This document shows, in pieces, positions 5,414 through 53,537 of a stretch of DNA of 64,000 bases. The stretch is taken from the NCBI GenBank assembly GCA_964542755.1, contig CAZIWL010000005.1:12439-76438 (forward strand), written 5' to 3'. The stretch comes from an uncultured Anaerolineales bacterium (lineage in GTDB: Bacteria > Chloroflexota > Anaerolineae > B4-G1). The position numbers and the translations under genes were made by a program. The number at the start of each line of letters is the position of its first letter. Position 1 is the first letter of the stretch. The notes under the pieces are model-generated. The model was not told the origin of the DNA and ran no database searches. It saw only the letters and a list, made by a program, of their open reading frames with translations.

Positions 5414-6877
5414 ATGGTCAGGAGTATCGAGGGGCCCGGAAAGGGCCTGGTCGGGGGACAGTACAAGCCGTTGACCGATGCCGAGGTGACGCGGATTCAC
5501 GAGGCATCGCTGGAAGTCCTGGAGCGGACCGGCGTGAACGTCCAGGAAGCGGAGGCGCTGGCACTCTTCAAAGAGGCTGGGGCGGACGTGCATGGAGACC
5601 GTGTCCGCCTTTCCAGGGCCATGGTCGAGGACGCCATCGCCACGGCGTCGTCCAAGGTGGTCTTGGCGGGCCGCGACCCGGACAATGACCTGATTCTGGA
5701 GGACGCACGGGTTCACATCGGGACGGGAGGTGCTGCTCTCCAGGTGCTGGATCTGGAGACGGGTACAATTCGAAAGGCGCTCTTGAGTGATGTCGGGGAT
5801 ATGGCGCGTATCGTGGATGCCCTGGACAATATCCACTTCTACCTCATCCCGATCTATCCCACCGATCTACCTGAAGAACAGGTGGAGATCAGCAAATACT
5901 ACGCTTCTCTGGCCAATACGACGAAGCACGTCCAGGCGGGAGTTTACACACTGCGGGGCATCCGCGATGTCGTGGCGATGTGTGAGAGGATCGCCGGCAG
6001 TCCGGAGGCCCTCCGTGCCCGGCCGCTCGTCTCGTTCATCACCAGCTGGATGGTCAGCCCGCTGAAGTTCGCCACCGACGTGACCACACTTCTCATTGAA
6101 GTCTGTCGCCAGGGTATACCCGTCGTCCTGTCGGCGGCCCCGATGGCTGGTTCGACGTCACCCGTGACGCTCGCGGGGACGTTGGTTCAGCTGAACGCCG
6201 AGCAGTTATCTGGCCTCACGTTGACACAGCTCGTCAATCCGGGGACGCCGGTCATCATGGGGCCGATCCCTGCGACGGCGGACATGCGGAGTGGAAAGTA
6301 CCTGGGTGGCTCCGTGGAGCTGGGTATCGGTAACGCGGCTATCACCCAGCTCGCTCACCGGTACGAAGTGCCCATCTACAATAGTGCCGGTATGACCGAC
6401 AGCAAGCTTCCGGATATTCAGGCCGGGATGGAGAAGGCTCAATCGGCGATTCAGGTTGCCCTTGCCGGTGCCAATTTCATCCACCACGCCGCGGGGATGC
6501 TCGAGGACATGTCTACCATCGCCTATGAGCAGTTCGTCATCGACAACGAGATGTTGGGGATGGCGATGCGCGCCGTACGCGGCATTGAGGTCGATGACGA
6601 TACGCTCGCTGTCGAGGCCATCGACCGGGTGGGCCCCGGGGGGCACTACCTGGCGGACGAGCATACGATGCGCTACATGCGCACTGAGCACTACTACCCG
6701 TCCCGAGTCTTTGACCGGCAGGGCCGTGACGAATGGGAGGACGACGGATCGACCGACGCGTGGCTCCGGGCCAGAGAGCTGGCTCGGGAGATCTTGCGTA
6801 AGCACGAACCGGAACTCCTGGATGGCGAGGCCGATGCCTGGATCAAGGAACAGTTCGCCCACACGCTGACCCTGTGA
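5414..6877 (+). CDS. MttB-superfamily methyltransferase (non-pyrrolysine; glycine betaine/quaternary amine methyltransferase-like)
   Basis: 487 aa, full-length MttB-like TIM barrel with no in-frame TAG. GGAGGG RBS. Confidence 0.85.
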   Translation: MVRSIEGPGKGLVGGQYKPLTDAEVTRIHEASLEVLERTGVNVQEAEALALFKEAGADVHGDRVRLSRAMVEDAIATASSKVVLAGRDPDNDLILEDARVHIGTGGAALQVLDLETGTIRKALLSDVGDMARIVDALDNIHFYLIPIYPTDLPEEQVEISKYYASLANTTKHVQAGVYTLRGIRDVVAMCERIAGSPEALRARPLVSFITSWMVSPLKFATDVTTLLIEVCRQGIPVVLSAAPMAGSTSPVTLAGTLVQLNAEQLSGLTLTQLVNPGTPVIMGPIPATADMRSGKYLGGSVELGIGNAAITQLAHRYEVPIYNSAGMTDSKLPDIQAGMEKAQSAIQVALAGANFIHHAAGMLEDMSTIAYEQFVIDNEMLGMAMRAVRGIEVDDDTLAVEAIDRVGPGGHYLADEHTMRYMRTEHYYPSRVFDRQGRDEWEDDGSTDAWLRARELAREILRKHEPELLDGEADAWIKEQFAHTLTL

Positions 6878-7019: not shown

Positions 7020-8474
7020 GTGACGGATCAACTGCCGATTCCGACGCTGCAGCCATTTAGTCGCGGCCTCTCTGACGAACAGGTGCGTGAGCTACATTAC
7101 GCCACGCTTGAGATCCTCTCAAGCACGGGAGTCGATATGCAGGACCCCGAGGGCCGTGAACTCCTCTTGGAGGCGGGCGCCTGGGAGTCTGACGACCGCA
7201 TCAAGGTGCCCGAGAACCTGGTGACCGACGCCATCGACGCGGCGCCCTCGCGCATCCCCATGTACGATCGATTGGGTAACCTGACGATGCCGCTGGAGCT
7301 TGGAAAGGTCTTCTTTGGCGCCGGGTCAGACACCACGTTCACGCTCGACGTGGAGACTGGCGAGCGCCGTCGTACCACAGCCCGGGATGTCGAGGACATT
7401 GCGCGCCTCTGTGACGCATTGGACAACATCGACTTCATCATGTCGATGAGCAATCCCTCGGACGTCCCCGCCGACGATCTGTACATCCACGAGTTCGCCG
7501 GAATGATCCGGGGCTCCGCAAAACCGAACGTCTACACGGCGAAGGACCGTGCCGACGTGGAGGATATCTATCGCATCGCTGCCGCCGTGGTCGGTGGCGA
7601 ACAGGCCTTGCGTGAGAGACCATTCTTCTTGCTCTACGCTGAGCCCATTTCGCCCCTGATGATCATCGAGGAATCGCTACAGAAGCTGATCTTCTGCGCC
7701 GAGAAGGGAGTCCCGTCAGGTTACATTCCCTCACCCAACATGGGGGGAGGGGGACCCATCACGCTCGCCGGCGCTCTCGCGGTCGGTAACGCCGAGTGTC
7801 TGCTGGGCCTGGTCATCGCGCAGCTGCTCAACCCCGGCACCCCGTATATCTACGGGATGAACACCGCCGCTATGGATATGAAGACCACCATCATCAGCTA
7901 CGGCAGTCCTGAGTGGCCCCTTGGCATGATGGCTCAGATGGACTTGGCCCGATACTACAATCTCCCGGCGTGGTCGGCTGCCGGAGCGAGCGACAGCAAG
8001 GTCGTTGACGCCCAGGTGGGCATCGAGATCACGTTCTCGGTCCTCGCCAACTTCCTGGCGCGCGCCACACTGGTGCACGACGTGGGCTACATTGAGTATG
8101 GTTCGACGTCCTCGATGGAAGCGCTGGTTATCGCCGACGAGGTCATACGCCAGACCCGCTTCCTTACGCAGGGCGTCGAGGTCAGCCCGCGCACGCTGGC
8201 GTTGGACGCCACAGCACGTGTGCGGCCTGGAGGTGGCTACCTGGCCGACGACCACACGCTGGACAACTGGCGGGAGGCGCAGTGGCACCCTGACCTGATC
8301 GACCGCGCTCGCTACGACGACTGGGTGGAGGCTGGCAGCAGGGATATGTTCACACGCGCCAACGAGCGGGCACGGAGGATCCTGAGCGAGCATGAGGTGG
8401 CGCCGCTGCCGGAGGAGGCCGAGAGCCTCATCGCGGAGATTCTGGAGAAACGAGCGTCCGAGCAGGGCGAGTAG
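7020..8474 (+). CDS. MttB-superfamily methyltransferase, second paralogue (non-Pyl)
   Basis: 484 aa, paralogous to 5414-6877. GTG start with GGAGGTGA RBS. Confidence 0.85.
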   Translation: MTDQLPIPTLQPFSRGLSDEQVRELHYATLEILSSTGVDMQDPEGRELLLEAGAWESDDRIKVPENLVTDAIDAAPSRIPMYDRLGNLTMPLELGKVFFGAGSDTTFTLDVETGERRRTTARDVEDIARLCDALDNIDFIMSMSNPSDVPADDLYIHEFAGMIRGSAKPNVYTAKDRADVEDIYRIAAAVVGGEQALRERPFFLLYAEPISPLMIIEESLQKLIFCAEKGVPSGYIPSPNMGGGGPITLAGALAVGNAECLLGLVIAQLLNPGTPYIYGMNTAAMDMKTTIISYGSPEWPLGMMAQMDLARYYNLPAWSAAGASDSKVVDAQVGIEITFSVLANFLARATLVHDVGYIEYGSTSSMEALVIADEVIRQTRFLTQGVEVSPRTLALDATARVRPGGGYLADDHTLDNWREAQWHPDLIDRARYDDWVEAGSRDMFTRANERARRILSEHEVAPLPEEAESLIAEILEKRASEQGE

Positions 8475-10288: not shown

Positions 10289-10403
10289 CCCCGTGAAAGC
10301 GGCGGCTTGACGAAACGGGGCCTTCGCGTTAGAATACCGCGCGCGGGCAGGATACGCTTCCTGCCCGTTTGTTGAGCAAGACGGTATTCAGGAGGAGTGT
10401 AGT

Positions 10404-11114
10404 ATGAGTCAGAAAGGCCGACTTGAGTTGGCCGCAATGAAGCGGTCCTTGTTTGGCAGCCACGTGAAGCAGCTGCGACGCGACGGCTGGGTGCCCGGCG
10501 TAATGTACGGGCGCGGATTCGACTCCGTCTCTTTGAAGTTCGATCAGCACGAGCTGCGAGACGTCCTGTCTCAGGTGGGCGGAAGCCAATTGGTGAATAT
10601 CAACGTCGAGGGAGCTGACGGACCGGAGTTTGCGCTCCTCCGTGAGGTGCAGCGTGACGTGATCACCAAGGCCCTACTCCACGTTGACTTCTATCGTGTC
10701 ATGATGTCCGAGACCATCACCACCGAGATCCCGCTCTTGACCACGGGAGTCTCACCCGTTGCTGAGCAGAAAGAGGGCATTCTTCTGCATGGCATTGCCG
10801 AGATCGAGGTTGAGTGTCTGCCTGGTGACTTGGTGGACGCCTTTGAGGTCGATCTGTCTGAACTCACTGAGGTGGGTCAGGCAATCCTCGTCGAGGATCT
10901 CACCGTGCCACCTGGCATTGACGTCCTCACCGATCCAGACGAGGTCATTGCGCGTCTCGTTCCGCTGGAGGAGGTCGATCTGGAGGCACCGGCGGCAGAG
11001 CTCGAGGAAGAGCTCCTCATGGGCGAGGAGGGCGAAGAGGTCGAGGTCATCGGCGAGGCAGACGCGGAAGAGGGCGAGGACGCCGGAGAAGACGAAGTCC
11101 GCGACTATATGTAG
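10404..11114 (+). CDS. rplY: 50S ribosomal protein L25 / general stress protein Ctc
   Basis: 236 aa. L25/Ctc N-terminal beta-barrel plus acidic C-terminal tail. AGGAGG RBS. Confidence 0.85.
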   Translation: MSQKGRLELAAMKRSLFGSHVKQLRRDGWVPGVMYGRGFDSVSLKFDQHELRDVLSQVGGSQLVNINVEGADGPEFALLREVQRDVITKALLHVDFYRVMMSETITTEIPLLTTGVSPVAEQKEGILLHGIAEIEVECLPGDLVDAFEVDLSELTEVGQAILVEDLTVPPGIDVLTDPDEVIARLVPLEEVDLEAPAAELEEELLMGEEGEEVEVIGEADAEEGEDAGEDEVRDYM

Positions 11115-11138
11115 CCATCAAGCTGAATTGAGCGCCAG

Positions 11139-11175
11139 GCGGAGGTGGGGTTGCCCATCTCCGCCTTTTGGTGTC
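11139..11175 (+). terminator. Rho-independent terminator after rplY
   Basis: aggcggaggtggggttgcccatctccgcct stem-loop followed by ttttggtgtcttt. Confidence 0.55.
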
Positions 11176-11290: not shown

Positions 11291-11339
11291 ATCTCGCCGT
11301 AAACTTGAAATGCACCCGCTCCGATCCGAGAGGGATGGC

Positions 11340-11368
11340 TTGACAGTGCCCCGCTTACCGTATAGAAT
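11340..11368 (+). promoter_or_regulatory. Sigma70-like promoter for the dnaJ-like gene (TTGACA-17-TAGAAT)
   Basis: cTTGACAgtgccccgcttaccgtaTAGAATga. The -35 element is at 11340-11345 and the -10 at 11363-11368. Confidence 0.5.
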
Positions 11369-11395
11369 GACGTGCCAACCGTGAGGGGTGGCAAT

Positions 11396-12385
11396 TTGGA
11401 GTATAGGGACTACTACGACATCCTGAATGTTGGCCGGGGCGCGAGCGAGAAGGAGATCAAGCAGTCCTTTCGCCGCCTGGCCCGCCGCTGGCACCCCGAC
11501 GTGAACCCCGACGACCCCCAAGCCGAAGAGAAGTTCAAAGAGATCAACGAGGCATACGAGGTACTGAGCGATCCAGAGAAGCGCTCCAAGTATGACCGGC
11601 TGGGCCATAGCTGGAAACAGTGGCAGCGGTCAGGTGGCGATCCGGGACAGTACGACTGGTCCCAGTGGTTCACCGGTGGACCGCGAGGAGCCCGCGTCCA
11701 CTGGAATGGCGACCTGGGCGATCTCTTCGGTGGCGCCGGTGGTGAGGCCTTCTCGGATTTCTTCGGCGCCATCTTTGGCGGGGGGACGGCCGGCCGCCGC
11801 CGATCCGCGGCTGACATCTTCGGTCAGCCGGTTCGCGGTCGGGCCTATGGCGCTGGGTCGCGCGGACGGGACGCGGAGACCAATGTCACTGTCACCCTTG
11901 AGGAAGCGTACCGTGGGACGAGCCGTGTCCTGGAGAGAGGCGGACGGCGCATACGGGTCACCATTCCCCCGGGTGTGCGTACCGGTTCCCGAGTGCGAGT
12001 CGCCGGCGAAGGGAACTTCGGCCATACCGGCGGGGATTCTGGTGACCTCTATCTGAGCATTGCCGTGGAACCGCATCCTGTTTTCGAGAGGGAGGGCGAC
12101 GATCTCCGCTGCGATGTGGCGGTGGATCTTTGCACGGCCGTGCTTGGAGGGCGGCTCCGGCTGCCCACGCTGAACGGCGACGTATCGTTGAGGATTCCCG
12201 CCGGGACCCAGGGTGGGCAGACCTTCAGGCTCCGGGGAAAAGGGATGCCCAATCCCCGACGCCCTGACGAGCGAGGGCATCTCTTGGCCACAACAGAGAT
12301 CGAGATTCCGCAGAAGCTGACTCCCCGTGAGAGAGAGTTGTTTGAGGAGTTGGCGAAGAGTAGAGGAAAGGAACGCCATGCATAG
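11396..12385 (+). CDS. DnaJ-class co-chaperone (J domain plus DnaJ C-terminal domains, CbpA-like, no zinc finger)
   Basis: [37 protein letters not shown] domain with the HPD motif. Gly-rich linker, then C-terminal DnaJ_C beta-sandwich. TTG start with GAGGGG RBS; the start codon is uncertain. Confidence 0.75.
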
Positions 12386-13553
12386 AGGGAAGCCGCTGTT
12401 GCTTCTCATAGCGCTTCTGACCCTGGCCGCGTTAGCCTGCAACGCCCAGGAGCTAGTGTTCGAACCCACGCCCACCTTGCCTTCGCAGTTTGCCCCGAGT
12501 CCAGAGCCCACGCCCACACTTCTGCCCGCCTCCGAGGGCGACCTAAAGGAGTTGGATGCTCAAGACGCACTCCTGGCGAGCCTCTATCAGCGGGTCAATC
12601 CTGCTGTCGTCTATATCGAGGTCCTTATGCAGCGCGGCGGTGGACTCCAGCCCGTGAGCAGCGGGTCTGGCTTCATGATAGACAAGGACGGCTATGTGAT
12701 CACGAACAACCACGTCGTCGAGGGCGCCAACGCCCTGCAGGTCGTGCTGGCCGATGGCTCCGTCGTGAACGAGGTCGAGATCGTGGGGCGTGATCCCTAC
12801 TCGGACATCGCTGTCATTCGCATGGAGGCCCCGCCGGACCGCTTGACGCCTCTGGAGCTCGGAGACTCCGATGCACTGCGCGTCGGACAGAGGGTGATTG
12901 CTATCGGGAACCCCTTTGGTCTCCAGGGAACTATGACCTCCGGCGTGGTGAGCGCCGTGGGGCGGACCCTGACGTCTCAAGCACTGGAGGGCGGCTCGTT
13001 CTCCAATCCGGAGATTATCCAGACCGACGCATCAATCAACCCGGGGAACTCCGGCGGCCCGCTTCTGGACTCGCGTGGGCGCGTTGTGGGCGTCAACACG
13101 GCGATCCGTTCCGGGACGGGTGTCAACGCCGGGGTGGGCTTCGCCGTGCCCGTGAACACAGTCAAGCGCATTGTTCCGCAGCTCATCGAAAATGGGGCCT
13201 ACGACTACCCGTACCTGGGGATCACGTCCGATACGAGGTTCACTTTGGCCGAGTTGGCTGACCCGTTGGAGCTCCCCGTCGACTACGGGACGCTCGTCTC
13301 TGAGGTCCAGCCTGGCACGGCAGCGGCGGAGGCAGGTCTCCGGGGTGGTGATCGCGAAGTAGAGGTTATGGGCCTCCCGGTCGTGGCTGGCGGTGACATC
13401 ATCACCGCCATCGACGGCGAGCAGCTCCGGACGTTCGACGATCTCGTGGCGTATCTCGTGAGCGACACGGAGGTGGGACAGCAGGTGACACTGACTGTCT
13501 ACCGTGACGAAGAGCAGCTGGAGGTTCCAGTCATCCTTGGGCAGAGGCCGTAG
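12378..13553 (+). CDS. HtrA/DegP-family serine protease with PDZ domain (secreted or lipoprotein)
   Basis: Signal peptide with LAALAC. Trypsin-like catalytic motifs (HVV, DIAV, GNSGGPL) and a C-terminal PDZ domain. Confidence 0.85.
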
Positions 13554-13696
13554 GATGTTTGGGACACACGGCATCGGGTACACGGGCTGGGGGTTCGAGA
13601 GGCCGTAGCGAGCTGAGGGCTTCCAGATCTCGGCCCGAAATCGTAGCGCACGATTGGATTGGTAATGGTCAGAAAGGGATGAAAGGGGTAAAGCCT

Positions 13697-14806
13697 ATGT
13701 TCAATCGAGAGGACCTGCGTGAACTCGCGGCGTACCAAACAGACGCACAAGTGTTGAGCGTCTACCTGAACGTGGACCCTACAGACCGATCGCGGGACGA
13801 GTACCGCATTGAGCTCCGCCAGCTGCTGAAGGAAGCGGCCGGCCTGGCCAGCAGTGAGGATGCAGCGGCGGTGGAGGCCTTCTTTGACCACGAGTACGAC
13901 TGGTCGGGCCGCGGAGCTGTCGCCTTCTCCTGTCAGGAGGAGGACTTCTGGCGTGCCTACTCCCTGGCCATTTCAGTACGCTCAGGCGTTACCGTTGCCC
14001 ATCGACCATACATCTCACCCCTGGCGGAGCTCCTGGATGCCTACGGAAGCTACGCTGTCGCTGTTGTGGATCGCCGTCAGGTGCGTCTCTTCCACTTTGA
14101 TCTCGGCGAGCTCCGTGCGACTGATGAGTTTGTCGGAGAGGATGTGCGGAAGCTGAAGCGCGGCCGCGGATCATCGGGGGGACACGGCCGACGTGGAGGA
14201 GCTCCGATCTCCAGCCAGCACGAGGTTGAGGTCGTCAACCGCAACATCCGACAGGCTGTTGAGCGCATGCAGCACTTCTGTCAGCAGCACGACCCCCAGC
14301 GCTTGATCATTGCCGGAAGCGACGGCACGGTAGCCCAGTTCCAGGAGGAACTACCTAAGCATCTTCAAGACAAGGTCATTGGAACCTTCAGCGCCGACCT
14401 GAATGCCAGCGAGCCCACCATCCGGGATCGCTCCTTGGAGATCATTGAGCAGGTTGAGGTGCACCGCAAAGAGTCGCTCGTGGATGCCGTCTTCACCGCT
14501 GCGGCCAAGGGCGAGAACGGCGTGATTCGCTTGGCCGACACGCTGGGAGCAGCTCACGAAGGGCGAATCCAGACCCTCGTGATTGACCGCCACTATCACG
14601 AACCTGGCTACCAGTGCAAGCACTGTGGCTACATCACCGATCAAGCCCTGCAGAAATGCCCGTTCTGTGGAAGCGAGTTCATGGAGATATCCGACGCCGC
14701 TGAGGCTCTCGTTACCAGGGTGATTGAGGACGGCGGGGACGTGGAGGTCGTTGAAGGGAATCCGAAGGTCGAGCAGTTTGGTGTCGGCGCGCTGCTACGC
14801 TACTAG
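13697..14806 (+). CDS. Bacterial eRF1/Pelota-like protein (baeRF family) with C-terminal zinc ribbon
   Basis: KLKRGRGSSGGHGRRGG...VEVVNRNIRQAVERM parallels the eRF1 domain-2 HGRGGQS loop. Domain-3-like LIIAGSDGTVAQFQ. CKHCGY..CPFCG zinc ribbon. AAAGGGG RBS. Confidence 0.6.
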   Translation: MFNREDLRELAAYQTDAQVLSVYLNVDPTDRSRDEYRIELRQLLKEAAGLASSEDAAAVEAFFDHEYDWSGRGAVAFSCQEEDFWRAYSLAISVRSGVTVAHRPYISPLAELLDAYGSYAVAVVDRRQVRLFHFDLGELRATDEFVGEDVRKLKRGRGSSGGHGRRGGAPISSQHEVEVVNRNIRQAVERMQHFCQQHDPQRLIIAGSDGTVAQFQEELPKHLQDKVIGTFSADLNASEPTIRDRSLEIIEQVEVHRKESLVDAVFTAAAKGENGVIRLADTLGAAHEGRIQTLVIDRHYHEPGYQCKHCGYITDQALQKCPFCGSEFMEISDAAEALVTRVIEDGGDVEVVEGNPKVEQFGVGALLRY

Positions 14807-14918: not shown

Positions 14919-15731
14919 ATGGTCAGAGGTTCTACTGACTTGTCGAGATCGATTCTTCAGGTTGTGAGACATACTGTGGCAGACGCTGAGACGGTCACTC
15001 GATACCGTGAGCCGCTGGTGGCCTTCGCCGACGCTGACGATCCCCGGTTCGCGCGCCTTCGCGAAGTCGCGGATCCTGATCACTTGATGCCTCACGATCT
15101 CCTCTCTCGGGCACGCTCGGTCATCTCCTTTTTCCTCCCCTTCCATCCGGATGTCGTCAGCGCCAATGCCGATCATCCCGAGACCGTGACCGACGAGTGG
15201 GCGCGTGCCTACGTAGAGACGAATGATCTGATTGGAGAAATTGCTCACCAGCTCATCGAGTTCTTCGACGAGCGCGCCGAGGAGGCGGCTGCCGAGCCGG
15301 CAACGGGAAGCTTTGACGAGGGATCGCTGACCAGCCGCTGGTCCCACAAGAGCGCAGCCGTCATTTCCGGCCTGGGGAGTTTTGGTTTGCATCAGATGGT
15401 CATCACTGACGCGGGGTGCGCCGGTCGACTTGGGAGTCTGGTGACGTCGGCCCGCCTTCCGGTGTCATCCGTTGAGCCTCGGGAGCGGTGCCTCTACTTC
15501 TACGACGGCAGCTGCACGAGCTGCATGCAACGTTGTCCCCTGGATGCGCTATCCGTAAACGATACGTTTGATCGGTGGGCTTGCTGGGGGCGCTGTCGGG
15601 AGGTGGCCGACCAGTTCCTGCACCTGGGCACGGTTAAGGCCTGCGGCAAGTGCGTCGTCGGCCCCTGTGCATTTGAGTCGCCAGTGTCCATCACAGAGCA
15701 CAGAGGTCAGATCCCTGCTTCACGGCGATAA
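14919..15731 (+). CDS. 4Fe-4S cluster protein, QueG/reductive-dehalogenase-like family
   Basis: 270 aa. CLYFYDGSCTSCMQRCP and CWGRC...CGKCVVGPC cysteine motifs. SHKSAAVISGLGSFG segment resembles epoxyqueuosine-reductase-type folds. Confidence 0.5.
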   Translation: MVRGSTDLSRSILQVVRHTVADAETVTRYREPLVAFADADDPRFARLREVADPDHLMPHDLLSRARSVISFFLPFHPDVVSANADHPETVTDEWARAYVETNDLIGEIAHQLIEFFDERAEEAAAEPATGSFDEGSLTSRWSHKSAAVISGLGSFGLHQMVITDAGCAGRLGSLVTSARLPVSSVEPRERCLYFYDGSCTSCMQRCPLDALSVNDTFDRWACWGRCREVADQFLHLGTVKACGKCVVGPCAFESPVSITEHRGQIPASRR

Positions 15732-16002
15732 CGTCGTCCCGGATGCCGGTCCCTCGGGACGGTTCCTGGTCGCTGGTACGGGACTGCGAGGGACGCATAT
15801 GCGAGATGGTCGTCCAAAGGAAACAAAGGCCGTAATCCATCGGAGCTGGAATGGGAATTTGGGGGTGCGCCGCAGCAACAGACTGCTTGAGCCTTACGAC
15901 CTGTAACCACTTCTCCCCGGCCGCCGGCTTGAACGGACCTGGGTGCCTCGCATCAGACAAATCGCAGGACGGTCTACCACTCCTCTCTCGTCAGCGGTTG
16001 AT

Positions 16003-18207
16003 CTAGTCGACGTCCTTCGCACAGCGAAAACCGGCCACGGTGAAGCCGAACTTCGGATCAAGTTGGAAACGATACGCGCTGCGGACGAACTGCTCAGTGT
16101 CGTACCACGAACCTCCCCGGAGTACCTTCTGCGCGCCTGAGGCCGGGCCCGTCGGATTCACGTCCGCTTCCTCACGGTAGTCCCCGTACCAGTCCTCCAC
16201 CCATTCCCAGACATTGCCTGCCATATCCAGCGCCCCGCACCAGCTTGCGCCTCCCGGATAGCCCCCTACGGGCCCTGTCTTCGCATACCCGTCGTCGCTG
16301 TCCTCGGCAGCCCACTCGGAGGGGCATCGTGCATCGCAGAAGTTGAGCCGCTGCCCGTCAAAGGTGTCACCCCATGGGAAGACCCGCGCCTCGGGACCCC
16401 GGGCGGCATACTCCCACTCGGCCTCGGTTGGCAACCGTCCTCCTATCCATTCGCAGTAGGCCGCCGCACCGTGCCAGGTAACCTCTAGTACGGGGTGGTC
16501 TGCGTAACCGGCCTTGGCCCGGAAACTATCCCCGGCCTGTTCAATCAACGCGCTCTCGCTCTCCACCTCCAGCCAGTCCGTACCGTCCTCTGCCTGGTTC
16601 GTCTCCTGATCGAGGAAGGTTGCGAACTGCTCGTTTGTCACCTCGGTCCTGTCAATCCAGAAGCTGTCTAGGGTCACACGATGGATTGGCCCTTCCTTTT
16701 CGAACACCTCTCTCTGGCACTCGTCATTCAGTTCCAGGCAGAACGCTAGCGCGTGCTCGATATCCTCTCTACTTGTGCCCATGTCGAACGCGCCGGCTGG
16801 CACGAGGATCATCATGGCCCCATCCGTCGGTCGGATCTGTGTCTCGACTTCCGGCGTAGCCTCAGTCCCTGCGGGTTCAGGGGTATCCGCTCTGTTCTCG
16901 TCAGGCAGAGGGCTGGGGTCCACGGTCCTCGTCGGCGTCCCGGTGGCGCTCGGCTCACGAGTCGCCGAATCGCCTTCCGTCGCCTCCGCTGTGGATACTC
17001 GTCCCAGCTCTCCCACAGCGTCACCCGAACGCCCCGTCTGACCGGCCAGGACCAGGCCCAGGGCTACTGCGGCAGTGAGGACCGCCAAAGCCAGGCCTCC
17101 AAGGGCCCAGGCGATTAGAGGTATTCCTCCTGGCGTACTGCGTCGCTGTTGGGAGCCCGAGCCAGGCGGAGCTCCATCAGTCGCGCCGCGTCCGGACTGC
17201 TGCGATACCCGGCGCAGGTCCAGATCTGCCTCATCCACCCCCCTCCTGTCTCCCTCGGCGGCGGGCCCGATTCCCCTACGTGGCGTTTCCCTGGAAGAGG
17301 CTCGTTCACGCGCTGATCCCCCGTCATCCCTCGCTCTGATTGTCTTGCGCCCTTGCCGGCCCGATTGCCTACGCTGCAGGGCATCCCGCATGGCTTCAGC
17401 GCTCGGAAAGCGACCCTTTGGATCCTTATGCAACGCGCGATGCACGACCGCAGCCAGGTGTTCCGGAACGTCCGTCCTCACGTCTGTCAGGGATCTCGGT
17501 TGTGATTGCTGGATCAGCCCGATGTTGTGTGCCTGGGCTGCCGGTGTGGTCTCGGTTCGGAATGCAAGATAGGGCTTGCCGGCCAGCATCGTGTAGAGGA
17601 GCACCCCCACGGCGTAGACATCGATGCGCGGGTCGTCCCGGACGCCCGAGAGTTGCTCCGGGGCCATGTACTGGACCGTCCCCATGGCCAACCCGGCCGC
17701 GGTGTGGAACCTCCGGGTCATCATGTCTGTGGAAACGTACGCGATGCCGAAGTCAACCAACTGCACCTGACCATCCTCATCGAAAAGGACGTTGGCTGGC
17801 TTGATGTCGCAGTGCACAACACCCTTTTGGTGGGCGTAATGCAGGGCCTCGCATAGATCGGCTGCAATGCGGACGACTTGATGGGGCGGGAGCGGCCCAT
17901 CCTCCAGCCGCTCTTCAAGCGATCCGCCGGGCAAGTGCTCCATCGCCAGGTAGTAGGTTCCCTGGTCCTGGAAGATGCCGTACGTCCGAGCGATGTACCT
18001 GTGCTTGAGGCGGAGGGTCGCGCGTGCTTCCTGGATGAATCGGTGCACCATCTCCGGATCATCGACGAAGCTGGGTATCAGCTCCTTGATGGCGACAACT
18101 TCACCAGTCAGCCGTTCGCGCGCGAGATAAACGTAGCCGAAACCGCCTCGGCCTACAATGCCAGAAATCTGGTACTTTCCGTCCAGGATCTTTCCTGGCT
18201 GTCGCAT
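16003..18207 (-). CDS. Ser/Thr protein kinase fused to a C-terminal formylglycine-generating-enzyme (FGE-sulfatase) domain, with TM segment
   Basis: N-terminal Hanks kinase (GRGGFGYVY, HCDIKPAN, DFG, APE). Low-complexity linker and TM helix. C-terminal FGE motifs (RVTLDSFWID.TEVTN, LPTEAEWEYAARG, RGGSW). AGGAGG RBS before the ATG at 18207. Confidence 0.85.
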   Translation of the reverse strand: MRQPGKILDGKYQISGIVGRGGFGYVYLARERLTGEVVAIKELIPSFVDDPEMVHRFIQEARATLRLKHRYIARTYGIFQDQGTYYLAMEHLPGGSLEERLEDGPLPPHQVVRIAADLCEALHYAHQKGVVHCDIKPANVLFDEDGQVQLVDFGIAYVSTDMMTRRFHTAAGLAMGTVQYMAPEQLSGVRDDPRIDVYAVGVLLYTMLAGKPYLAFRTETTPAAQAHNIGLIQQSQPRSLTDVRTDVPEHLAAVVHRALHKDPKGRFPSAEAMRDALQRRQSGRQGRKTIRARDDGGSARERASSRETPRRGIGPAAEGDRRGVDEADLDLRRVSQQSGRGATDGAPPGSGSQQRRSTPGGIPLIAWALGGLALAVLTAAVALGLVLAGQTGRSGDAVGELGRVSTAEATEGDSATREPSATGTPTRTVDPSPLPDENRADTPEPAGTEATPEVETQIRPTDGAMMILVPAGAFDMGTSREDIEHALAFCLELNDECQREVFEKEGPIHRVTLDSFWIDRTEVTNEQFATFLDQETNQAEDGTDWLEVESESALIEQAGDSFRAKAGYADHPVLEVTWHGAAAYCEWIGGRLPTEAEWEYAARGPEARVFPWGDTFDGQRLNFCDARCPSEWAAEDSDDGYAKTGPVGGYPGGASWCGALDMAGNVWEWVEDWYGDYREEADVNPTGPASGAQKVLRGGSWYDTEQFVRSAYRFQLDPKFGFTVAGFRCAKDVD

Positions 18208-18618
18208 AGGGATCCTCCTGTTTCGACCCCGGTCGCTCAAGGTCCTGGGGTGAGCGGCTAGTATAGCATCTCCTGACGGCGCTAACAACCCACCACTTGC
18301 GCTCAACCACGGCGCGCGGGGGAGGCTCTCTCATATGCAAATCCAACACGATTCCTACGAAACTCCTACGAGGAATCCGTATAATCTTGACGAGGCGCAA
18401 GATGCGTCGATCCTGTGGCAGCGCACTATGGTGCAGGAAGAGCGTGGGCGTTTCGAATTGCCGTGGTCTCTCCATGTGAGGTGATCCAATGGAGCATCAT
18501 GCACGACGGGGGCGCTTTCTGGCAATCCCGTGCGAGGGGTGGACGCTCTCTGATCATTGGGTTTGAGCCATGTTAGGCCTATTTGGATAGTTGTCTTTAG
18601 AATCGATTGGTGAGTGAT

Positions 18619-21210
18619 ATGAATCTAAACAAGTTCACGCAGAAAGCACAAGAAGCTGTGATGGAGGCACAGTCGCTGGCGGGCAAGTACAGCCACAGCC
18701 AGATCGAACCCGGGCATCTCCTGCTGGCGCTTCTGCGGCAGGCGGACGGCATCGTCCCACAGGTCGTCCAGAAGCTCGAGGCGAATCCGGGGGAGATGGC
18801 CCTGTCCCTTGAGGGCGAACTGAAGAAGCGGCCGAGGATTCGTGGCGCGGCAGCCCAGGTGGGCATGTCGCGGCAGCTCGGACGTGTACTGGAAGAGGCC
18901 CAGGAGACGGCTCAACGCATGCGCGACGAGTACGCGAGCACGGAGCACCTGCTGCTGGCTCTGACCGGCACCCAGGGGGGTGATGCTGCGCGTTTCCTCT
19001 CAGCTCATGGCGTCACGGAGGACGCTGTTCTCAGGGCACTGACCGCCATCCGGGGCAACCAGCGTGTCACCAGTCAGAATCCCGAGGCGACGTACCAGGC
19101 CCTGGAGAAGTACGGTCGCGATCTAACGGAGCTGGCCCGTGATGGCAAGCTGGATCCTGTCATTGGGCGCGACGAGGAGATTCGCCGCGTGATGCGCATC
19201 CTGAACCGCCGTACCAAGAACAATCCCGTCTTGGTTGGCGAGGCAGGTGTGGGCAAGACAGCGATCGCCGAGGGCCTGGCCCAGCGCATCGCCCACGGCG
19301 ATGTTCCCGAGGGGCTGAAGAACAAGCGCATTGTCGAGCTCGATATGGGGGCTTTGGTCGCTGGCGCTAAGTTCCGAGGTGAGTTCGAGGAACGGCTCAA
19401 GGCGGTGCTCAAAGAGGTTACCGAAGCGGCCGGTCAGGTCATCCTGTTCATCGACGAGCTCCACACCGTTGTAGGGGCTGGCGCGGCGGAGGGTGCCGTC
19501 GACGCGGGCAACATGCTCAAGCCGAAGCTCGCACGCGGTGAGTTGCACGCCATTGGTGCGACGACCTTGAACGAGTACCGGAAGTACATTGAGAAGGATG
19601 CGGCCCTTGAGCGACGCTTCCAGCCCGTCTTTATTGCCGAGCCGGGGGTCGAGGATACCGTCAGCATACTCCGCGGGCTCAAGGAGCGGTATGAGGTCCA
19701 CCACGGCGTGCGCATCAAGGACTCGGCCTGCATCTCGGCGGCCACGCTTAGTGATCGGTACATCGCAGACCGTCAGCTCCCAGACAAGGCCATCGACCTC
19801 ATCGACGAGGCTGCCTCACGCCTGCGCATGGAGATTGACTCCAAGCCGTCCGAGCTAGATGAAGTGGATCGACAGATCATGCAGTTGGAGATTGAGCGCG
19901 AGGCCCTCAAGAAGGAGAGCGACACGGCCAGCCGTGACCGGCTCGAGGACCTGGAGAGAGAGCTGGCTGACCTGGAGGAGACGCGGAAGGCCCTGCGCGC
20001 GCAGTGGGAGCAGGAGAAGAGTGCCATCCAAGCGGTCCAGCAGACGAAGGAGCAGATGGATCGAGTCCGTCATCGTATCCAGGAGGCCCAACGGACGCAC
20101 GACTACGAACAGGCATCGGAACTCCAGTACGGTCGACTTTCGGAGCTGCAGCGGCAGCTTGAGGCTCAAGAGGAGCGGCTCAACGAGCTCCAAGAAGGTG
20201 GTGCTATGCTCAAGGAGGAGGTCGGCTCAGAGGAGATCGCCGAGGTCGTCTCTGAATGGACAAGCATCCCCGTCGCCAAGCTCCTTGAGGGAGAGCGAGA
20301 GCGTTTGCTCCGCATGGAGGAGGCTCTCCACCGCCAGGTTGTGGGACAGGAGGAGGCCGTCGAGGCCGTCTCAAACGCCGTGCGACGGGCCCGCGCCGGT
20401 CTGCAGGATCCCAACCGGCCCATCGGGACCTTCATCTTCCTCGGTCCAACGGGAGTCGGCAAGACCGAGCTGGCCAGGGCTCTGGCCCAATTTCTCTTCG
20501 ACACGGAAGAGGCCATGATTCGCATCGACATGAGCGAGTACCAGGAGCGGCATACTGTCTCCCGCTTGATCGGTGCCCCTCCCGGGTACGTAGGCTATGA
20601 GGAGGCCGGTCAGCTCACTGAGGCCGTTCGACGCCGTCCCTACAGCGTGGTCCTTTTTGACGAGATCGAGAAGGCCCACCCGGAGGTCTTCAACACCCTC
20701 CTCCAGCTGTTGGACGAGGGCCGTCTGACCGATGGGCAGGGGCGGACGGTGGACTTCCGGAACACGATCATCATCATGACGAGCAACGTCGGCAGCCGCT
20801 GGATCAAGGACAAGGGTGTCGATGAGGCGCGAGACAAGGTGATGGAGGAGCTCGATCGCATCTTCCGTCCCGAGTTCCTCAACCGCATCGACGAGATCAT
20901 TCTCTTCCGCAGCCTCACCAAGGAGGACTTGCGAAGGATCGTCGACATCCAGATGCGCCATCTGCGTCGTCTGCTCGACGAGCGGAAGATGGACTTGCAG
21001 ATGACGGATGAAGCACGGCGTCATCTGGCCGAGGTCGGCTACGATCCGGTCTACGGTGCCCGTCCACTCAAGCGCGTCATCCAGCGGCAGGTGCAGGATC
21101 CGCTGGCCCTGTCGCTCCTCCGGGGAGAGTTCGACGAGGGCGACACCGTACGGCTGGAGGCACCTAACGGGCGCATTACGTTCAAGAAGGCCGAGGCTGC
21201 TTCGGCTTGA
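18619..21210 (+). CDS. clpB: Chaperone ClpB (Hsp100 disaggregase)
   Basis: Two AAA+ modules with Walker A/B. Long coiled-coil middle domain (about 130 aa). Clp N domain. Confidence 0.9.
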
Positions 21211-21515: not shown

Positions 21516-24017
21516 ATGATGAGGTTAGACCGTTTCACTGAGCGGGCGCAGGCGGCGGCCCAGCGGGCCGTCCAGATCATGGGGCGCTATGGACACACGC
21601 AGGTGGACACGGAACATATCTTCCTGGCGCTCCTGGAGCAACCTCAAGGCGCCATCTCCGACCTGATGGAACAGCTCGGCGCCGATACCGAGCAGGTCGA
21701 GAAGAAGCTCGACGAGGCACTGCAGGACAGTGCCAAGGCCAACGTCTACGGCGGCGGGGGCATGGGGCAGGTATTCATCACCCCGCGCGTGAAGCGCGTG
21801 TTGGACCGCGCGAACGCCGAGGCGAATCGGCTCAATGATGACTATATCTCCACCGAGCACATCTTCTTGGCCATCGCGAGCGAGAGGGACACGCTGCCCG
21901 CCCGCATCCTTCGAGAGCAGGGCATCTCCAAGCAACGGATCTACGAGGCCATCAAGGAGCTGCGGGGTGGCAAGCGAGTCACCGATCGACGAGCTGAGAC
22001 CCACTATCGGGTTCTGGAGAAATACAGCCGAAACCTGACCCAGATGGCGCACGAGGGGAAGCTTGACCCCGTTATCGCCAGGGATGATGAGATCCTCCGT
22101 TTGATCCAGATCCTCTGCCGCCGCACTAAGAACAACCCGGTCCTTATCGGTGAACCCGGAGTGGGCAAGACTGCCATCGCCGAGGGTCTGGCCCAGAAGG
22201 TCGCCGAAGGGGATGTCCCCGAGATTCTGATGGGGCGGGAGGTTGCCCAGTTGGATCTAGCATCAATGGTGGCCGGGACTCACTTCCGCGGCGAGTTCGA
22301 GGAGCGGCTGAAAGCGACCATCGAGGAGATCCAGAGTTCTGAAGGAGATATCATCCTCTTCATCGATGAGCTTCACAACGTGGTGGGGGCTGGGGCCGGC
22401 ATGGGGGCGCTCGATGCCTCAAACATGATGAAACCAGCGCTGGCTCGCGGTGAACTCCAGTGTATCGGGGCGACCACGCTCGATGAATATCGTCAATACA
22501 TTGAGCAGGATGGTGCCCTGGAGCGGCGATTTGCCCCCATCTTCGTCGATGAGCCAACAGTCGAGAAGGCTGTGGTCATGCTCGAGGGGCTGCGGGACCG
22601 ATATGAGGCACACCACAAGGTTCACATATCGGATCAAGCGATTCAGGCGGCTGCTCACCTCTCGCACCGCTACGTCACGGACCGCCGCCTTCCTGATAAG
22701 GCTATCGACCTGATGGACGAGGCCGCGGCCAAACTGCGCGTTGCCCTCCACACCCTCCCTCCGGAGTTGAAGGAGATGCACATTGAGCTCCAGCGCCTCC
22801 AGACGGAGATCGACGCGGCCAGCAATATGGAGGATTACCAGCGGGCGGCCGAGTTGAAGACCGAGCGCATCAACCTTCAGGCTGAGTTCAACCTGCAGCG
22901 CGAGATATGGCAGCAGGAGAATCAGCTGGACGAGACCATTGAGGAGAAGGACATCGCGGAGGTCATAGCCAAGTGGACCGGCATTCCTGTGGCGCGCATG
23001 CTGGAGACGGAGTCGGACAAGCTGCTCCGGATGGAGGATGCGATCCACGAGCGCATTATCGGACAGGAGGAGGGCGTCGCCGCGGTCTCCGATGCCATCC
23101 GGCGCGCCCGGTCCGGGTTGAAGGATCCCAGCCGTCCTATCGGCAGCTTCATCTTCCTCGGCTCGTCGGGTGTGGGGAAGACAGAGCTGGCCAAGGCGCT
23201 GGCATGGTTCCTCTTCGACGACGAGGATGCCCTGGTTCGCATCGACATGAGTGAGTATCGGGAGCGGCACACTGTCTCGCGCCTCTTTGGTGCGCCTCCG
23301 GGATACATCGGTCACGAGCGCGGCGGCCAGTTGACCGAGGCGGTTCGCCGCCGACCTTATCGGGTTGTCCTCTTTGATGAGATCGAGAAGGCCCACCCGG
23401 ACGTGTGGAACGCGCTTCTTCAGATTCTGGACGAGGGGCGGCTCACTGATGGTCAGGGTCGCATCGTGAACTTCCGGAATACCGTCGTGATCATGACGTC
23501 CAACGTCGGGACCTCGTTTGCTCATGAGGGTGGCACGCTAGGCTTCATGCGCTCCGAGGAGGACGGGCAAGGTGGCACGGTGAATCAGGAGCGCATCAAG
23601 CGCGAGCTCAAGGACACCTTCCGACCGGAGTTCCTCAACCGCATCGACGAGGTCATCGTCTTCAACAACCTGACGGTGGAGGACATGGAGAGCATCGTCG
23701 ACCTTCAGATGGCTGAGGTATCGGATCGACTCTCCGACGTGGGTCTGCAGGTCCGGCTGACTGACTTGAGCCGACGGTGGCTGGCGCGGAAGGGTTTCGA
23801 TCCTCAGTTTGGAGCCCGACCTCTTCGCCGTGCTCTCCAGCGGCACGTGGAGAGCCCTCTCAGCGTCAAGCTCCTACGGGGGGACTTCGAGCGCGGAGAC
23901 ATCGTGGTCGTCGACGTGGCGGACGATGATCTCATCTTCCAGACCAGCACTGAGTGGACGGAGCTGAGCGAGAAGACCAGGGAGCCCGTCGCCGGAGAGG
24001 TGAGCGTCGAGTCGTAG
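21516..24017 (+). CDS. clpC: ClpC/ClpA-type AAA+ ATPase (Hsp100 with short linker)
   Basis: 833 aa. Two N-domain repeats, two AAA+ modules, a short UVR-like linker ([25 protein letters not shown]) instead of the long ClpB M-domain. Confidence 0.85.
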
Positions 24018-26055: not shown

Positions 26056-27768
26056 TCAACCGTCGGCCCCACCGACCGTCTCCGAACGCTCCCTCGGGGA
26101 GAGGAGATGGTAGGTGAAACCGTTCATACAGACCTGGTCCATAGGCTCGTAGTTCTGCCCAATGGCCTCTAGAACCGGCGGCGGGTAGAACTGCGCGCGG
26201 AAGATGACCAGATCGAACCGCTGTCCGTTGATCTGCTCGATGATCTCTGTCATGTCCAGCAGGCCGTTGTTATACAGGTTCAGCAGCTGCGTTGGGTTGG
26301 TCACCACAGGTTTCTCGCCCAGAATGCTGAACATCGCTTCCTCACTGAAGATGGGCCCGTCGGCCGCGCGCACGTGGGCCATGATCTCCTCACCGGCTGC
26401 GTAATCCTCCTCTGACAGTGGATGACCCAGCTGCGTGTACCCCATCGCGTCGTGGTAGGCCACAGGCGCGCAGTGGGTGGAGGCGAGGTTTTCTCCTTTT
26501 CCGTAGGCCAGTTGGTTGTCGACACCCAGGGCTCGGGCGACCGTGGAGAAGATGGGTCCAGACGTGGGCAAATGGAGCATGCGTGGAGCTTGTCCCAGGT
26601 AGAGCAAGGGGATCAGCAGGGCGACGAGCGGTCCGATATGATGGCCCATCCAGGGAGGTCCAGACGCCGATGGGGCTCTTCCGTGGGAGTGCTCTCTCAG
26701 CTTGCCCAGGGCTAGGCCGGAAGTAAGGCAGGCTGCCGCCACCGCCGTATTGAAGTAGCCGAACCCGGCTCCCCACTTGCCGCTCAAAGCGCCGACGCCG
26801 AGAGCAAAGAAAAACCAGAGAGAGTACGCCGACAGGCGGTCCCAGAACAGCTCATAGACCAGATAGCCCGCACCCAAGACGACGAATAGGGTGTGCAGAT
26901 CGAACCACTGGCGGAAGAGGAAGAGCGTCTGGCGATAGTCGAACTCGTTGACGTTCGCCTGGATGATATTGATCCACCATTGGCCATCGGTCGCCACGTT
27001 GAGCAGCCAGAAGACGGTGCCGGCACTGACGGCCAGAGCGGCGCCCGCTGCCAAGGCCTTTCTTATGTCTCGCAAGAAGACGTACGACAAACCCGCTGCG
27101 ACGGTGAATACGGCTGTCTGTTTCGTGTACCCGGCGCAGAAGAGCATCACCAAACCCAGGATCAGATTCCGCCTGCCGTGCTTCGGGTCATCGAACTCGG
27201 CGATGAAGGCGATGGAGAGCGTCTCGAACATCACGAGCGTCATATGCATCCGGCACAGAGGCCCAATCTGGTAGACGTAGTTCGATGCCAGGAAGGCCAG
27301 TCCTGAGATGAGAGGAATCAGCCATCCTCGCATCCAGTCCTTTGCGTCGCCTCGGATGCTCCGCCGAACGACCAACCCGATCGCCCCTGCAGTCACCAGT
27401 GTTGCCGTGAAGGAGAGAAGTCTTCCGGTCAGAAGCCTGGGGCCGAGGAGGGGCAGCAGGGGGACGATAAGGAGGTGAAACAAGGGGGGATAGTTCGAGG
27501 CGTAGAAAGGGAAGGTCCCGTTGTCCCGATAGGGCCACTCCCCCCGGCTATAGAGGATCGCGTCGTATAACTCAAACCCCTCCCCCTGGTCGTAGTCGTA
27601 CGGCCAACGGAAGAGTTCGACGGCATAGGAGACGTAGACGACCAGATAACCAACGTAGGCCAGGATAACGAGCGCGGTCAACAGGATGCCGAGGCCGCTG
27701 AGGATGCGTGACGTGCTACGGCTCATGGTGATGGTCAGTCCAGATCGGTCACGCTGGTCGGTCTCCAA
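26056..27768 (-). CDS. Polytopic GT-C fold membrane glycosyltransferase (PMT/ArnT, GT39/GT83-like)
   Basis: 570 aa with more than 10 predicted TM helices. N-terminal loop with the DYDQGEGFELYD acidic motif typical of GT-C enzymes. Confidence 0.5.
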   Translation of the reverse strand: METDQRDRSGLTITMSRSTSRILSGLGILLTALVILAYVGYLVVYVSYAVELFRWPYDYDQGEGFELYDAILYSRGEWPYRDNGTFPFYASNYPPLFHLLIVPLLPLLGPRLLTGRLLSFTATLVTAGAIGLVVRRSIRGDAKDWMRGWLIPLISGLAFLASNYVYQIGPLCRMHMTLVMFETLSIAFIAEFDDPKHGRRNLILGLVMLFCAGYTKQTAVFTVAAGLSYVFLRDIRKALAAGAALAVSAGTVFWLLNVATDGQWWINIIQANVNEFDYRQTLFLFRQWFDLHTLFVVLGAGYLVYELFWDRLSAYSLWFFFALGVGALSGKWGAGFGYFNTAVAAACLTSGLALGKLREHSHGRAPSASGPPWMGHHIGPLVALLIPLLYLGQAPRMLHLPTSGPIFSTVARALGVDNQLAYGKGENLASTHCAPVAYHDAMGYTQLGHPLSEEDYAAGEEIMAHVRAADGPIFSEEAMFSILGEKPVVTNPTQLLNLYNNGLLDMTEIIEQINGQRFDLVIFRAQFYPPPVLEAIGQNYEPMDQVCMNGFTYHLLSPRERSETVGGADG

Positions 27769-32668: not shown

Positions 32669-32690
32669 GGAGGGACCCGAGAGAGGGGGC

Positions 32691-38688: not shown

Positions 38689-38729
38689 TTGACCATTGAA
38701 AATCATACGTGTTACTCGGAGGTGACAGC

Positions 38730-53517: not shown

Positions 53518-53537
53518 AGGGTGGCGTACCGCAGCCT

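Follow-up and report, generated by a model that had tools for sequence, protein, structure and literature searches.

The gene described here occupies positions 13697–14806 of a 64,000-nucleotide stretch of DNA from an uncultured Anaerolineales bacterium of the phylum Chloroflexota (contig CAZIWL010000005.1). The whole stretch is called the window below. The gene, here baeRF10, encodes a bacterial homologue of the release factor aeRF1, and it is likely to be a Balon-type ribosome hibernation or translation-arrest factor, i.e., a non-catalytic blocker of the ribosomal A site that is co-expressed with proteostasis genes. A new peptide-release or rescue enzyme is probably not what this gene encodes. 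An earlier note, made from the sequence alone, had taken the product for a bacterial eRF1/Pelota-like (baeRF) protein with a role in ribosome rescue or peptidyl-tRNA quality control coupled to proteolysis. The first part was borne out by the Pfam match to baeRF_family10 (E 1.8e-26) and by a Foldseek search that returned the aeRF1 fold. The second part was not: the critical loop has no conserved glutamine, the nearest structures are non-catalytic Balons, and the HtrA protease encoded next to baeRF10 carries a signal peptide. That reading was plausible but outdated, as bacterial eRF1 homologues are now known as common ribosome hibernation factors.

The baeRF-1 clade was defined by Burroughs and Aravind (2019, PMC6514570), who predicted for most baeRF families a non-catalytic role in regulating translation, with a link to HPF. 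According to the same work, the insertion of a zinc ribbon into the Pelota domain characterises aeRF1, and in many bacterial families this ribbon degenerated to a two-strand insert. Balon is a bacterial aeRF1 homologue that joins EF-Tu in holding the A site, both in vacant ribosomes and in those that are translating (Helena-Bueno 2024, PMC10901736). It has neither NIKS nor GGQ. Its HP motif at the decoding centre contacts A1492/A1913, its lasso loop surrounds A2602, and a bL27 trap is present as well; a beta-hairpin conserved in the C domain contacts EF-Tu (PMC10901736). Balon homologues are found in about 20% of representative bacteria, typically encoded in stress operons alongside DnaK, DnaJ and Hsp20 (PMC10901736). 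For the mycobacterial homologues Msmeg1130 and Rv2629, both A-site binding and inhibition of translation were reported; the hibernation role of all three proteins was derived from cryo-electron microscopy, genetics and in vitro translation (PMC10901736). A 2026 preprint describes a Balon homologue on native Synechocystis ribosomes that contacts rRNA via lineage-specific residues. The family, its mode of action and its association with chaperone operons have therefore already been described. The clade of the window protein stands out by three traits: its Gly/Arg loop is enlarged and constrained, the ancestral zinc ribbon has been retained, and the dnaJ-htrA operon is near-universal.

Family membership and predicted fold

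Using a Pfam scan, we found that the window protein matches PF18854 (baeRF_family10) with 93.6 bits over amino acids 104–249, which covers profile positions 1–141 of 143; the gathering threshold of this model is 27.1 bits. Three NCBIfam models of hibernation factors match over the full length but below their curated cut-offs: NF052288 (MSMEG_1130; 104.9 bits, cut-off 480), NF052289 (Rv2629; 58.1 bits, cut-off 320) and NF052287 (AOC03_06830; 46.8 bits, cut-off 330). The window protein is homologous to all three families and an equivalog of none. The classical aRF1/eRF1 model TIGR03676 gave 34 bits against a cut-off of 234.7, and no Pfam match to acVLRF1/VLRF1 was found in the window protein at E ≤ 0.01.

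The sole significant sequence match in the PDB was the Balon Msmeg1130. A profile of the close clade found Msmeg1130 (1.7e-9) and Rv2629 (1.2e-4) over the full length and did not reach eRF1 and Pelota. An exhaustive search collected 2,928 cluster representatives at E ≤ 1e-3, and a wide profile was made of 144 sequences drawn from them. With this profile, Msmeg1130 ranked highest (1.6e-38), followed by aRF1 (4af1; 2.1e-30, full length), Rv2629 (2.1e-21), eRF1 (5e-20, M and C domains), the Balon of Psychrobacter urativorans (2.8e-13) and Pelota (1.9e-11). Contrary to the earlier note, such proteins are neither rare nor, as a family, functionally uncharacterised. Msmeg1130 and Rv2629, their sequences reconstructed from the wide-profile alignments, were scanned with Pfam, and it turned out that Msmeg1130 is baeRF_family10 itself (124.7 bits) while Rv2629 belongs to family 2. 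Since the window protein shares its Pfam family with Msmeg1130, that family has an experimentally characterised hibernation factor.

The AlphaFold2 model built on the 144-sequence alignment has a mean predicted local distance difference test score (pLDDT) of 93.5 and a predicted template modelling score of 0.86. It shows the three-domain architecture of an N domain, an RNase-H-like M domain and a Pelota-type C domain, and is flexible (low pLDDT) only at the loop of about amino acids 150–170. In a Foldseek search of the PDB, the top matches were ribosome-bound Balons: 8v9l_z, which is Msmeg1130 (E 3.5e-26, template modelling (TM) score 0.80), then Rv2629 (TM 0.75) and P. urativorans Balon (TM 0.68). 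The matches to aRF1 (1e-20) and eRF1 (7e-18) had a TM score of about 0.5 each, and those to Pelota/Dom34 (1e-10 to 1e-7) had TM ≤ 0.41. The Foldseek probability was 1.0 for Balon, aRF1, eRF1 and Pelota over about 385–420 aligned columns. The model confirms an eRF1-like fold far beyond chance. The comparison with eRF1 and Pelota suggested by the earlier note has thus found this fold, and not only a generic zinc-ribbon protein. The predicted overall conformation matches that of ribosome-bound Msmeg1130 and not that of eRF1. With profile hidden Markov model homology, 369 amino acids and all three domains, the protein falls within the operational definition of Balon, which asks for such homology, at least 300 amino acids and the three domains.

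Public annotation of the family is inconsistent and partly misleading. Its homologues are labelled "Vms1/Ankzf1 family peptidyl-tRNA hydrolase", "baeRF10 domain-containing protein", "host attachment protein", "peptide chain release factor subunit 1", "eRF1", "rubrerythrin" and "rRNA maturation endonuclease Nob1". Hibernation is named in none of the labels seen.

The loop at the GGQ position

A Gly-rich loop in domain 2 had been compared with the GGQ loop of eRF1. We confirmed its position and its conservation in orthologues, but no conserved glutamine accompanies it. The loop, KRGRGSSGGHGRRGG, spans K154–G168 of the window protein and is followed by a helix. In the profile alignment it stands at the position of the GGQ loop: the family consensus prkhkqGGWsqarlqrh is placed against aRF1 PGKQRKGGQSAQRFARL and eRF1 PKKHGRGGQSALRFARL. 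The commonest form in the wider family, [KR]H[KR]QGGW[SA]xxR[YF]QRH, is co-linear with both, and read from this alignment GGQ is here turned into GGW. Among the 144 wide-profile sequences the loop is of the GGW class in 55, GRGS in 24 (the window clade), GG[GA]S in 9 and literal GGQ in 3, with 53 others.

The loop of the window clade is about 9 residues longer than in the family (median 40 versus 31 over the same alignment span), and its length is fixed in 120 of 121 clade sequences. In these 121 sequences its entropy is 0.35 versus 0.76 for the whole protein; K154, G156, R157, G158, G164, R166 and S172 are invariant, and S159, G162, G167 and G168 are kept in at least 117. Amino acids 150–173 include seven K/R, seven Gly and no D/E. 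Across the 121 sequences no glutamine in the loop is conserved, and GGQ is absent from the window protein. Following the three Gly pairs stand S159, one of H/P/A/Y (position 163) and A169; position 174, Q174 in the window protein, has R in 64 sequences and Q in 56. Which Gly pair is homologous to that of GGQ is ambiguous: the MAFFT alignment indicates G156-R157-G158, the spacing to the helix G167-G168-A169. Neither pair precedes Gln, and literal GGQ homology of the motif was therefore dropped. In the alignment, GGQ corresponds to G-R-G in the window clade and to GGW in most of the family.

In three relatives, P0091, P0134 and P0155, the enlarged loop includes a literal GGQ (…GRGSSGGQGRRGG…, …GMRGGQKE… and …GQRGGQGG…, respectively). 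P0134 has lost the zinc-ribbon cysteines as well. These relatives may be chance reversions or active variants.

The N domain, the C domain and the zinc ribbon

In the profile alignment the aRF1 segment ASNIKSKQ falls on a short, variable and acidic tip of the N domain, and NIKS is absent. This tip (amino acids 45–58, KEAAGLASSEDAAA) is the most variable segment in the close clade, with an entropy of 1.39 versus a mean of 0.76. The sequence of the N domain gives no indication of codon reading. A profile of the N domain alone gave only a weak match to Msmeg1130 (E 0.016). The N domain has a conserved V26-D27-P28, for which no correspondence to the HP motif was obtained; the Balon paper gives no residue numbers for it.

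The expected domain-3-like segment is present: the C domain aligns with that of aRF1/eRF1. The zinc ribbon (C307-x2-C310...C321-x2-C324) is also real, and its cysteines are invariant in the window clade and retained in 133 of 144 wider relatives. It is, however, an insert within domain 3 and not the C-terminal appendage that the earlier note had described, as 45 further residues follow it, ending with the aeRF1-type GVGALLRY. The same C-terminus is found in Rv2629. The insert aligns with that of aRF1 (CPNDH...CSDCG) and with the Cys-free insert of Msmeg1130, and is modelled with short strands at 304–307 and 327–331. Its site is that of Balon's beta-hairpin that binds EF-Tu (PMC10901736); the Anaerolineae clade keeps the ancestral zinc ribbon where this hairpin arose. 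The region gives weak rubredoxin-like and zinc-ribbon matches in Pfam/NCBIfam. The most conserved stretch of the whole protein, amino acids 268–290, also lies in the C domain.

Conserved gene order and promoter

We assessed synteny by tblastn in 44 species-level genomes, all of them metagenome-assembled genomes of uncultured Anaerolineae/Anaerolineales/Thermoflexales (Chloroflexota); the statistics cover only relatives at 61–81% identity. HtrA is encoded immediately upstream of baeRF10 on the same strand in 39 of 40 testable loci, and a J-protein upstream of HtrA in 33 of 35 genomes. L25 lies upstream in 22 of 30 genomes, and ClpB within 6 kb downstream of baeRF10 in 13 of 24. The ClpB-ClpC pair is also present in L001 and L003. 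The stress-operon placement of Balons is found here as the conserved dnaJ-like/htrA/baeRF10 order with ClpB downstream, and the linkage with dnaJ-htrA is held across dozens of species. The neighbourhood had been described correctly in the earlier note, and its dnaJ-htrA part is conserved, but the QueG-like gene is present in only 7 of 37 genomes; elsewhere the slot between baeRF10 and clpB holds other genes or nothing.

The htrA start overlaps the dnaJ stop by 8 nt, and the gap between htrA and baeRF10 is 23–216 nt in all loci but one. In the window this gap contains no match to a terminator or a promoter. A promoter of the TTGACA-N17-TAGAAT type precedes dnaJ in 34 of 36 genomes, with exact hexamers in 32, and a strong terminator at 11137–11166 follows L25/Ctc. 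Judging from the overlap of dnaJ and htrA, the short terminator-free gap, the shared conserved promoter and the terminator after L25, dnaJ, htrA and baeRF10 are likely co-transcribed. An RNA element in the htrA-baeRF10 gap was also considered and dropped: Rfam gave none, the fold z-score was -0.08, and the gap is poorly conserved.

The promoter consensus CTTGACAg-N9-TTAnGGTATAGAATga (window 11339–11370; L008–L051) is far better conserved than the coding sequences. The element could represent a strong promoter typical of the lineage, its -10 region extended, or it could conceal an operator. A similar TTGACG-N17-TAGAAT stands before L25 at 10307–10335. In the window we found no match to the controlling inverted repeat of chaperone expression (CIRCE) and none to CtsR sites; the HspR-associated inverted repeat (HAIR) gave 3 matches versus 1.8 expected, none at a promoter. 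Known stress operators were thus not found, and any stress induction of the unit is hypothetical.

The N-terminus of HtrA, read directly from the sequence, is a typical signal peptide followed by C. HtrA should therefore act outside the cytoplasm, which makes direct degradation of released peptides by HtrA unlikely and favours co-regulation.

The contigs of the distant representatives P0126, P0124 and P0168 are too short to inform on context, and members of their clusters partly filled this gap. Among more distant relatives, one at 52% identity keeps DnaJ-HtrA-baeRF10...ClpB, a 42%-identical one has a PDZ gene upstream, and a 41%-identical relative of the GGW type keeps DnaJ only, followed by a pair of extracytoplasmic function (ECF) sigma and anti-sigma factors. 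A GGW-type relative in Thermoflexus is without chaperone context. Pairs of ECF sigma and zf-HC2 anti-sigma factors tend to occur near GGW-type family-10 relatives, directly downstream or within about 4 kb (L059 8207–9295, L057 12346–13263, L054 3–503), a stress-regulatory context unlike the dnaJ-htrA operon.

Comparison with characterised homologues

Msmeg1130 of Mycobacterium smegmatis (PDB 8v9j/8v9l) is the best match of the window protein by sequence and structure. Both belong to the same Pfam family and have equal length, the same three-domain plan, a C-domain insert at the same site and an aeRF1-type C-terminus, and both are without NIKS and GGQ. They differ in that identity is about 20%, that the Msmeg1130 loop (…QAPQERAGQMREQRQARERE…) is shorter and not Gly-rich, and that its insert is Cys-free, whereas the Cys4 ribbon of the window protein is intact. 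In addition, the Msmeg1130 gene belongs to a hypoxia regulon, and the window gene to a dnaJ-htrA operon. With P. urativorans Balon (PDB 8rd8/8rdv/8rdw) and Mycobacterium tuberculosis Rv2629 (8v9k) the window protein shares fold, domain order, stress-operon context and the proposed mode, mRNA-independent occupancy of the A site with EF-Tu. In contrast to the window protein, Rv2629 is not of family 10, and P. urativorans Balon was matched only by the wide profile. The genes of these two proteins often adjoin RaiA, and none was seen among the window genes scanned.

The family is homologous to aRF1 (PDB 4af1) over the full length (2e-30). As in aRF1/eRF1, the loop and helix are co-linear with K-x-G-x-GGQ-S-x-x-R-F-x-R, the zinc ribbon stands at the aRF1 insert site, and the C-terminus reads G-[IV]-G-[AG]-[IL]-LR-[YF]. 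Unlike these factors, the window protein lacks NIKS, GGQ and the conserved Gln. Bacterial termination uses RF1/RF2. Vms1/ANKZF1 of the VLRF1 clade shares the aeRF1-superfamily middle domain; some GGW-type relatives give weak or moderate Pfam acVLRF1 matches, and some carry GGWSQ, which resembles GGxSQ. The window protein itself differs from Vms1/ANKZF1 in having neither a VLRF1 match nor the conserved Gln (GxxQ / GGxSQ), and from acVLRF1 in retaining the N and C domains (PMC6514570).

Proposed mode of action and alternative explanations

By homology with the characterised Balons, the window protein may bind the ribosome, and each individual contact proposed below comes from the same comparison. 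A tRNA-shaped, three-domain aeRF1 homologue would fill the A site without codon reading or peptide release. No mRNA would be needed for its N domain to dock at the decoding centre. The flexible, basic Gly/Arg loop would touch 23S rRNA beside the peptidyl-transferase centre and keep this centre inert, like the lasso loop of Balon around A2602. The C domain and the zinc ribbon could contact EF-Tu and/or the L7/L12 stalk. Judging from the gene context, translation would be braked and ribosomes protected within the same proteostasis programme as the J-protein, the secreted protease and the disaggregases, and the link to proteostasis would be co-regulation, not a physical hand-over of released peptides. 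A clade-specific loop fits the lineage-specific rRNA contacts of the Synechocystis Balon homologue. The Anaerolineae clade offers a good comparative case of the repurposing of aeRF1 into a hibernation factor, and of translation arrest tied to proteostasis in a poorly studied phylum.

Several points weigh against a plain hibernation factor. The window clade is experimentally uncharacterised, identity with the solved Balons is 16–21%, and the scores are far under the cut-offs of all three NCBIfam hibernation-factor equivalogs. The HP motif, the lasso loop and the bL27 trap of Balon could not be placed on the window protein, and the N-domain-only profile missed P. urativorans Balon. No CIRCE, HAIR or CtsR operator was found, the promoter looks housekeeping-like, and HPF/RaiA was not found among the window genes scanned. 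The loop, too, is unlike that of any solved Balon; it is Gly-rich and fixed in length, and its conservation far exceeds that of the rest of the protein, a pattern that Burroughs and Aravind tied to catalytic families, and family 10 was singled out by them as possibly active, with the catalytic glutamine possibly retained (PMC6514570). The protein could instead be a release-factor-like peptidyl-tRNA hydrolase or a Vms1-like tRNA nuclease, which would rescue stalled ribosomes and leave the released, incomplete chains to the J-protein, the protease and the Clp ATPases. The loop corresponds in position to the GGQ loop and is one of the most conserved segments, a few relatives have a literal GGQ, close relatives bear the NCBI label of a Vms1/Ankzf1 peptidyl-tRNA hydrolase, and the chaperone and protease context is conserved. 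However, G-R-G in the clade and GGW in most of the family leave no conserved Gln, the Pfam VLRF1 match is lacking, Msmeg1130, the family-10 member that has been characterised, blocks the A site without catalysis, and HtrA with its signal peptide cannot take cytosolic release products. A catalytic function is therefore quite unlikely.

Absence of the catalytic Gln is also a property of Dom34, and the protein might act as a non-catalytic rescue or recycling factor that recognises, following proteotoxic stress, ribosomes that are stalled or damaged and, with EF-Tu or another GTPase, brings them to subunit dissociation or reactivation rather than to long-term hibernation. Pelota belongs to the same superfamily with the same domain plan, has no catalytic activity and occupies the A site jointly with a translational GTPase; the most conserved surface, in the C domain, is consistent with a partner GTPase, and a Pelota-like reactivation role of Balon is raised in the 2026 preprint. 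We consider this function unlikely: the structure is much nearer to Balon (TM 0.8) than to Pelota, and no ribosome splitting is reported for Balon and Msmeg1130, which inhibit translation and bind ribosomes whether vacant or translating (PMC10901736). The structural difference extends to the N domain. That of Pelota is Sm-like and differs from the N domain of the window protein. Pelota's partner ABCE1 is, to our knowledge, absent from bacteria. The database names "host attachment protein" and "rubrerythrin", together with a weak Pfam Host_attach match (32.8 bits) and the rubredoxin-like matches, could suggest a host attachment, redox or generic zinc-ribbon protein and no ribosome factor at all. 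This is highly improbable, as Host_attach (PF10116) and the baeRF family models match one and the same region of the M domain, the rubredoxin-like matches span only the zinc knuckles of about 25 residues, and the full-length, confidently modelled aeRF1 fold matches ribosome-bound factors. There is, finally, a small chance that the Anaerolineae clade is a mechanistically distinct variant of Balon, either a stress-switchable translation brake or a glutamine-independent peptidyl-tRNA-processing factor. It could be argued from the constrained, enlarged Gly/Arg loop (GRGSSGGxGRRGG) and the intact Cys4 zinc ribbon. As a brake, oxidation of the ribbon or loss of zinc would gate the binding of EF-Tu or the ribosome, and with the co-transcribed J-protein nascent chains would be held and chaperoned on paused ribosomes during proteotoxic stress. 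If true, either variant would be a functional type new to the bacterial aeRF1 radiation and not a plain hibernation factor.

Gene structure and coordinates

The open reading frame (ORF) is real, and its start is the ATG that the earlier note had used. A mechanical ORF call opens at TTG 13559. This longer version was dropped because the ATG and its ribosome-binding site are conserved and the homologues have 369 amino acids, the length of nearly all 120 best homologues. Comparison of orthologous loci showed that the start ATGTTCAA is identical across four genomes and that a purine-rich GG stretch is also kept there, while the 143-nt spacer upstream of the baeRF10 start is unconserved. Independent gene calls on identical contigs also give 369 amino acids. 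The features are collected in Table 1. No Pfam match to a zinc-finger domain was found in the J-protein.

Table 1. Coordinates of baeRF10, its domains and the neighbouring features in the window.
Feature	Position	Strand	Basis and remarks
baeRF family-10 / Balon-like gene	13697–14806	+	369 amino acids plus stop; ORF, Pfam PF18854, Msmeg1130 match, AlphaFold2 model
Shine-Dalgarno-like AAAGGGG	13682–13688	+	8 nt before ATG; sequence reading
N domain	13697–14005	+	amino acids 1–103; AlphaFold2 secondary structure; no NIKS, hypervariable tip 45–58
Middle domain (eRF1 domain-2 / RNase-H-like)	14006–14401	+	amino acids 104–235; Pfam, eRF1/aRF1 M-domain alignment
Basic Gly/Arg loop VRKLKRGRGSSGGHGRRGGAPISS	14144–14215	+	amino acids 150–173; positional equivalent of GGQ loop / Balon lasso loop
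C domain (eRF1 domain 3 / Pelota domain)	14402–14803	+	amino acids 236–369; ends GVGALLRY; aligns with aRF1/eRF1 C domain
Cys4 zinc-ribbon insert	14603–14689	+	amino acids 303–331; C307, C310, C321, C324; inside C domain
L25/Ctc ribosomal protein (TL5 form)	10404–11114	+	Pfam
Sigma-70-type promoter TTGACA-N17-TAGAAT of the putative dnaJ-htrA-baeRF10 unit	11340–11368	+	11/12 match
Class-B (CbpA-like) J-protein	11396–12385	+	329 amino acids from TTG start; Pfam DnaJ, DnaJ_C; gene calls
HtrA/DegP-type serine protease with PDZ	12378–13553	+	Pfam Trypsin_2, PDZ_2; 391-amino-acid gene call
Variable slot, outside the conserved unit	14919–18306		differs among genomes
Weakly QueG-like Fe-S ORF	14919–15731	+	TIGR00276 35 bits versus cut-off 200
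Ser/Thr kinase-FGE-sulfatase fusion	16003–18306	-	kinase and FGE domains
ClpB	18607–21210	+	AAA+ chaperone; translation, Pfam; 3.8 kb downstream of baeRF10
ClpC-like	21516–24017	+	AAA+ chaperone; translation, Pfam

Other observations in the window

The 11–40 kb stretch is unusually rich in stress and proteostasis genes (DnaJ, HtrA, ClpB, ClpC, Hsp20s, a cold-shock protein). Two tandem Hsp20 genes lie at 38239–38688 and 38709–39173 (+), and 39950–40369 (-) encodes a cold-shock-domain protein whose N-terminus carries a treble-clef zinc finger. A kinase-PQQ/beta-propeller fusion (30695–32668, +) is followed by a PP2C phosphatase (32637–33551, +) and a J-domain-VWA protein (33567–35069, +). The two kinase fusions, the phosphatase and the unusual J-domain-VWA protein look like a signalling module adjoining the proteostasis genes. 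An IstB-like C-terminal fragment is found at 29324–30343. Several ORFs without a Pfam match are probable genes by their GC bias at third codon positions: 26056–27768 (-), 53481–54140 (+), 54208–54864 (-) and 58420–59133 (+), one of them of 570 amino acids.

Upstream of L25, ORFs 5414–6877 and 7020–8474 are two tandem MttB-family methyltransferase genes, with a pterin-binding protein and a B12-binding radical SAM protein nearby. Within the first of them, Rfam PYLIS_3 (pyrrolysine insertion sequence, mttB) matches at 6392–6491 with 49.1 bits. This ORF is an uninterrupted frame of 487 amino acids with no obvious in-frame amber codon.

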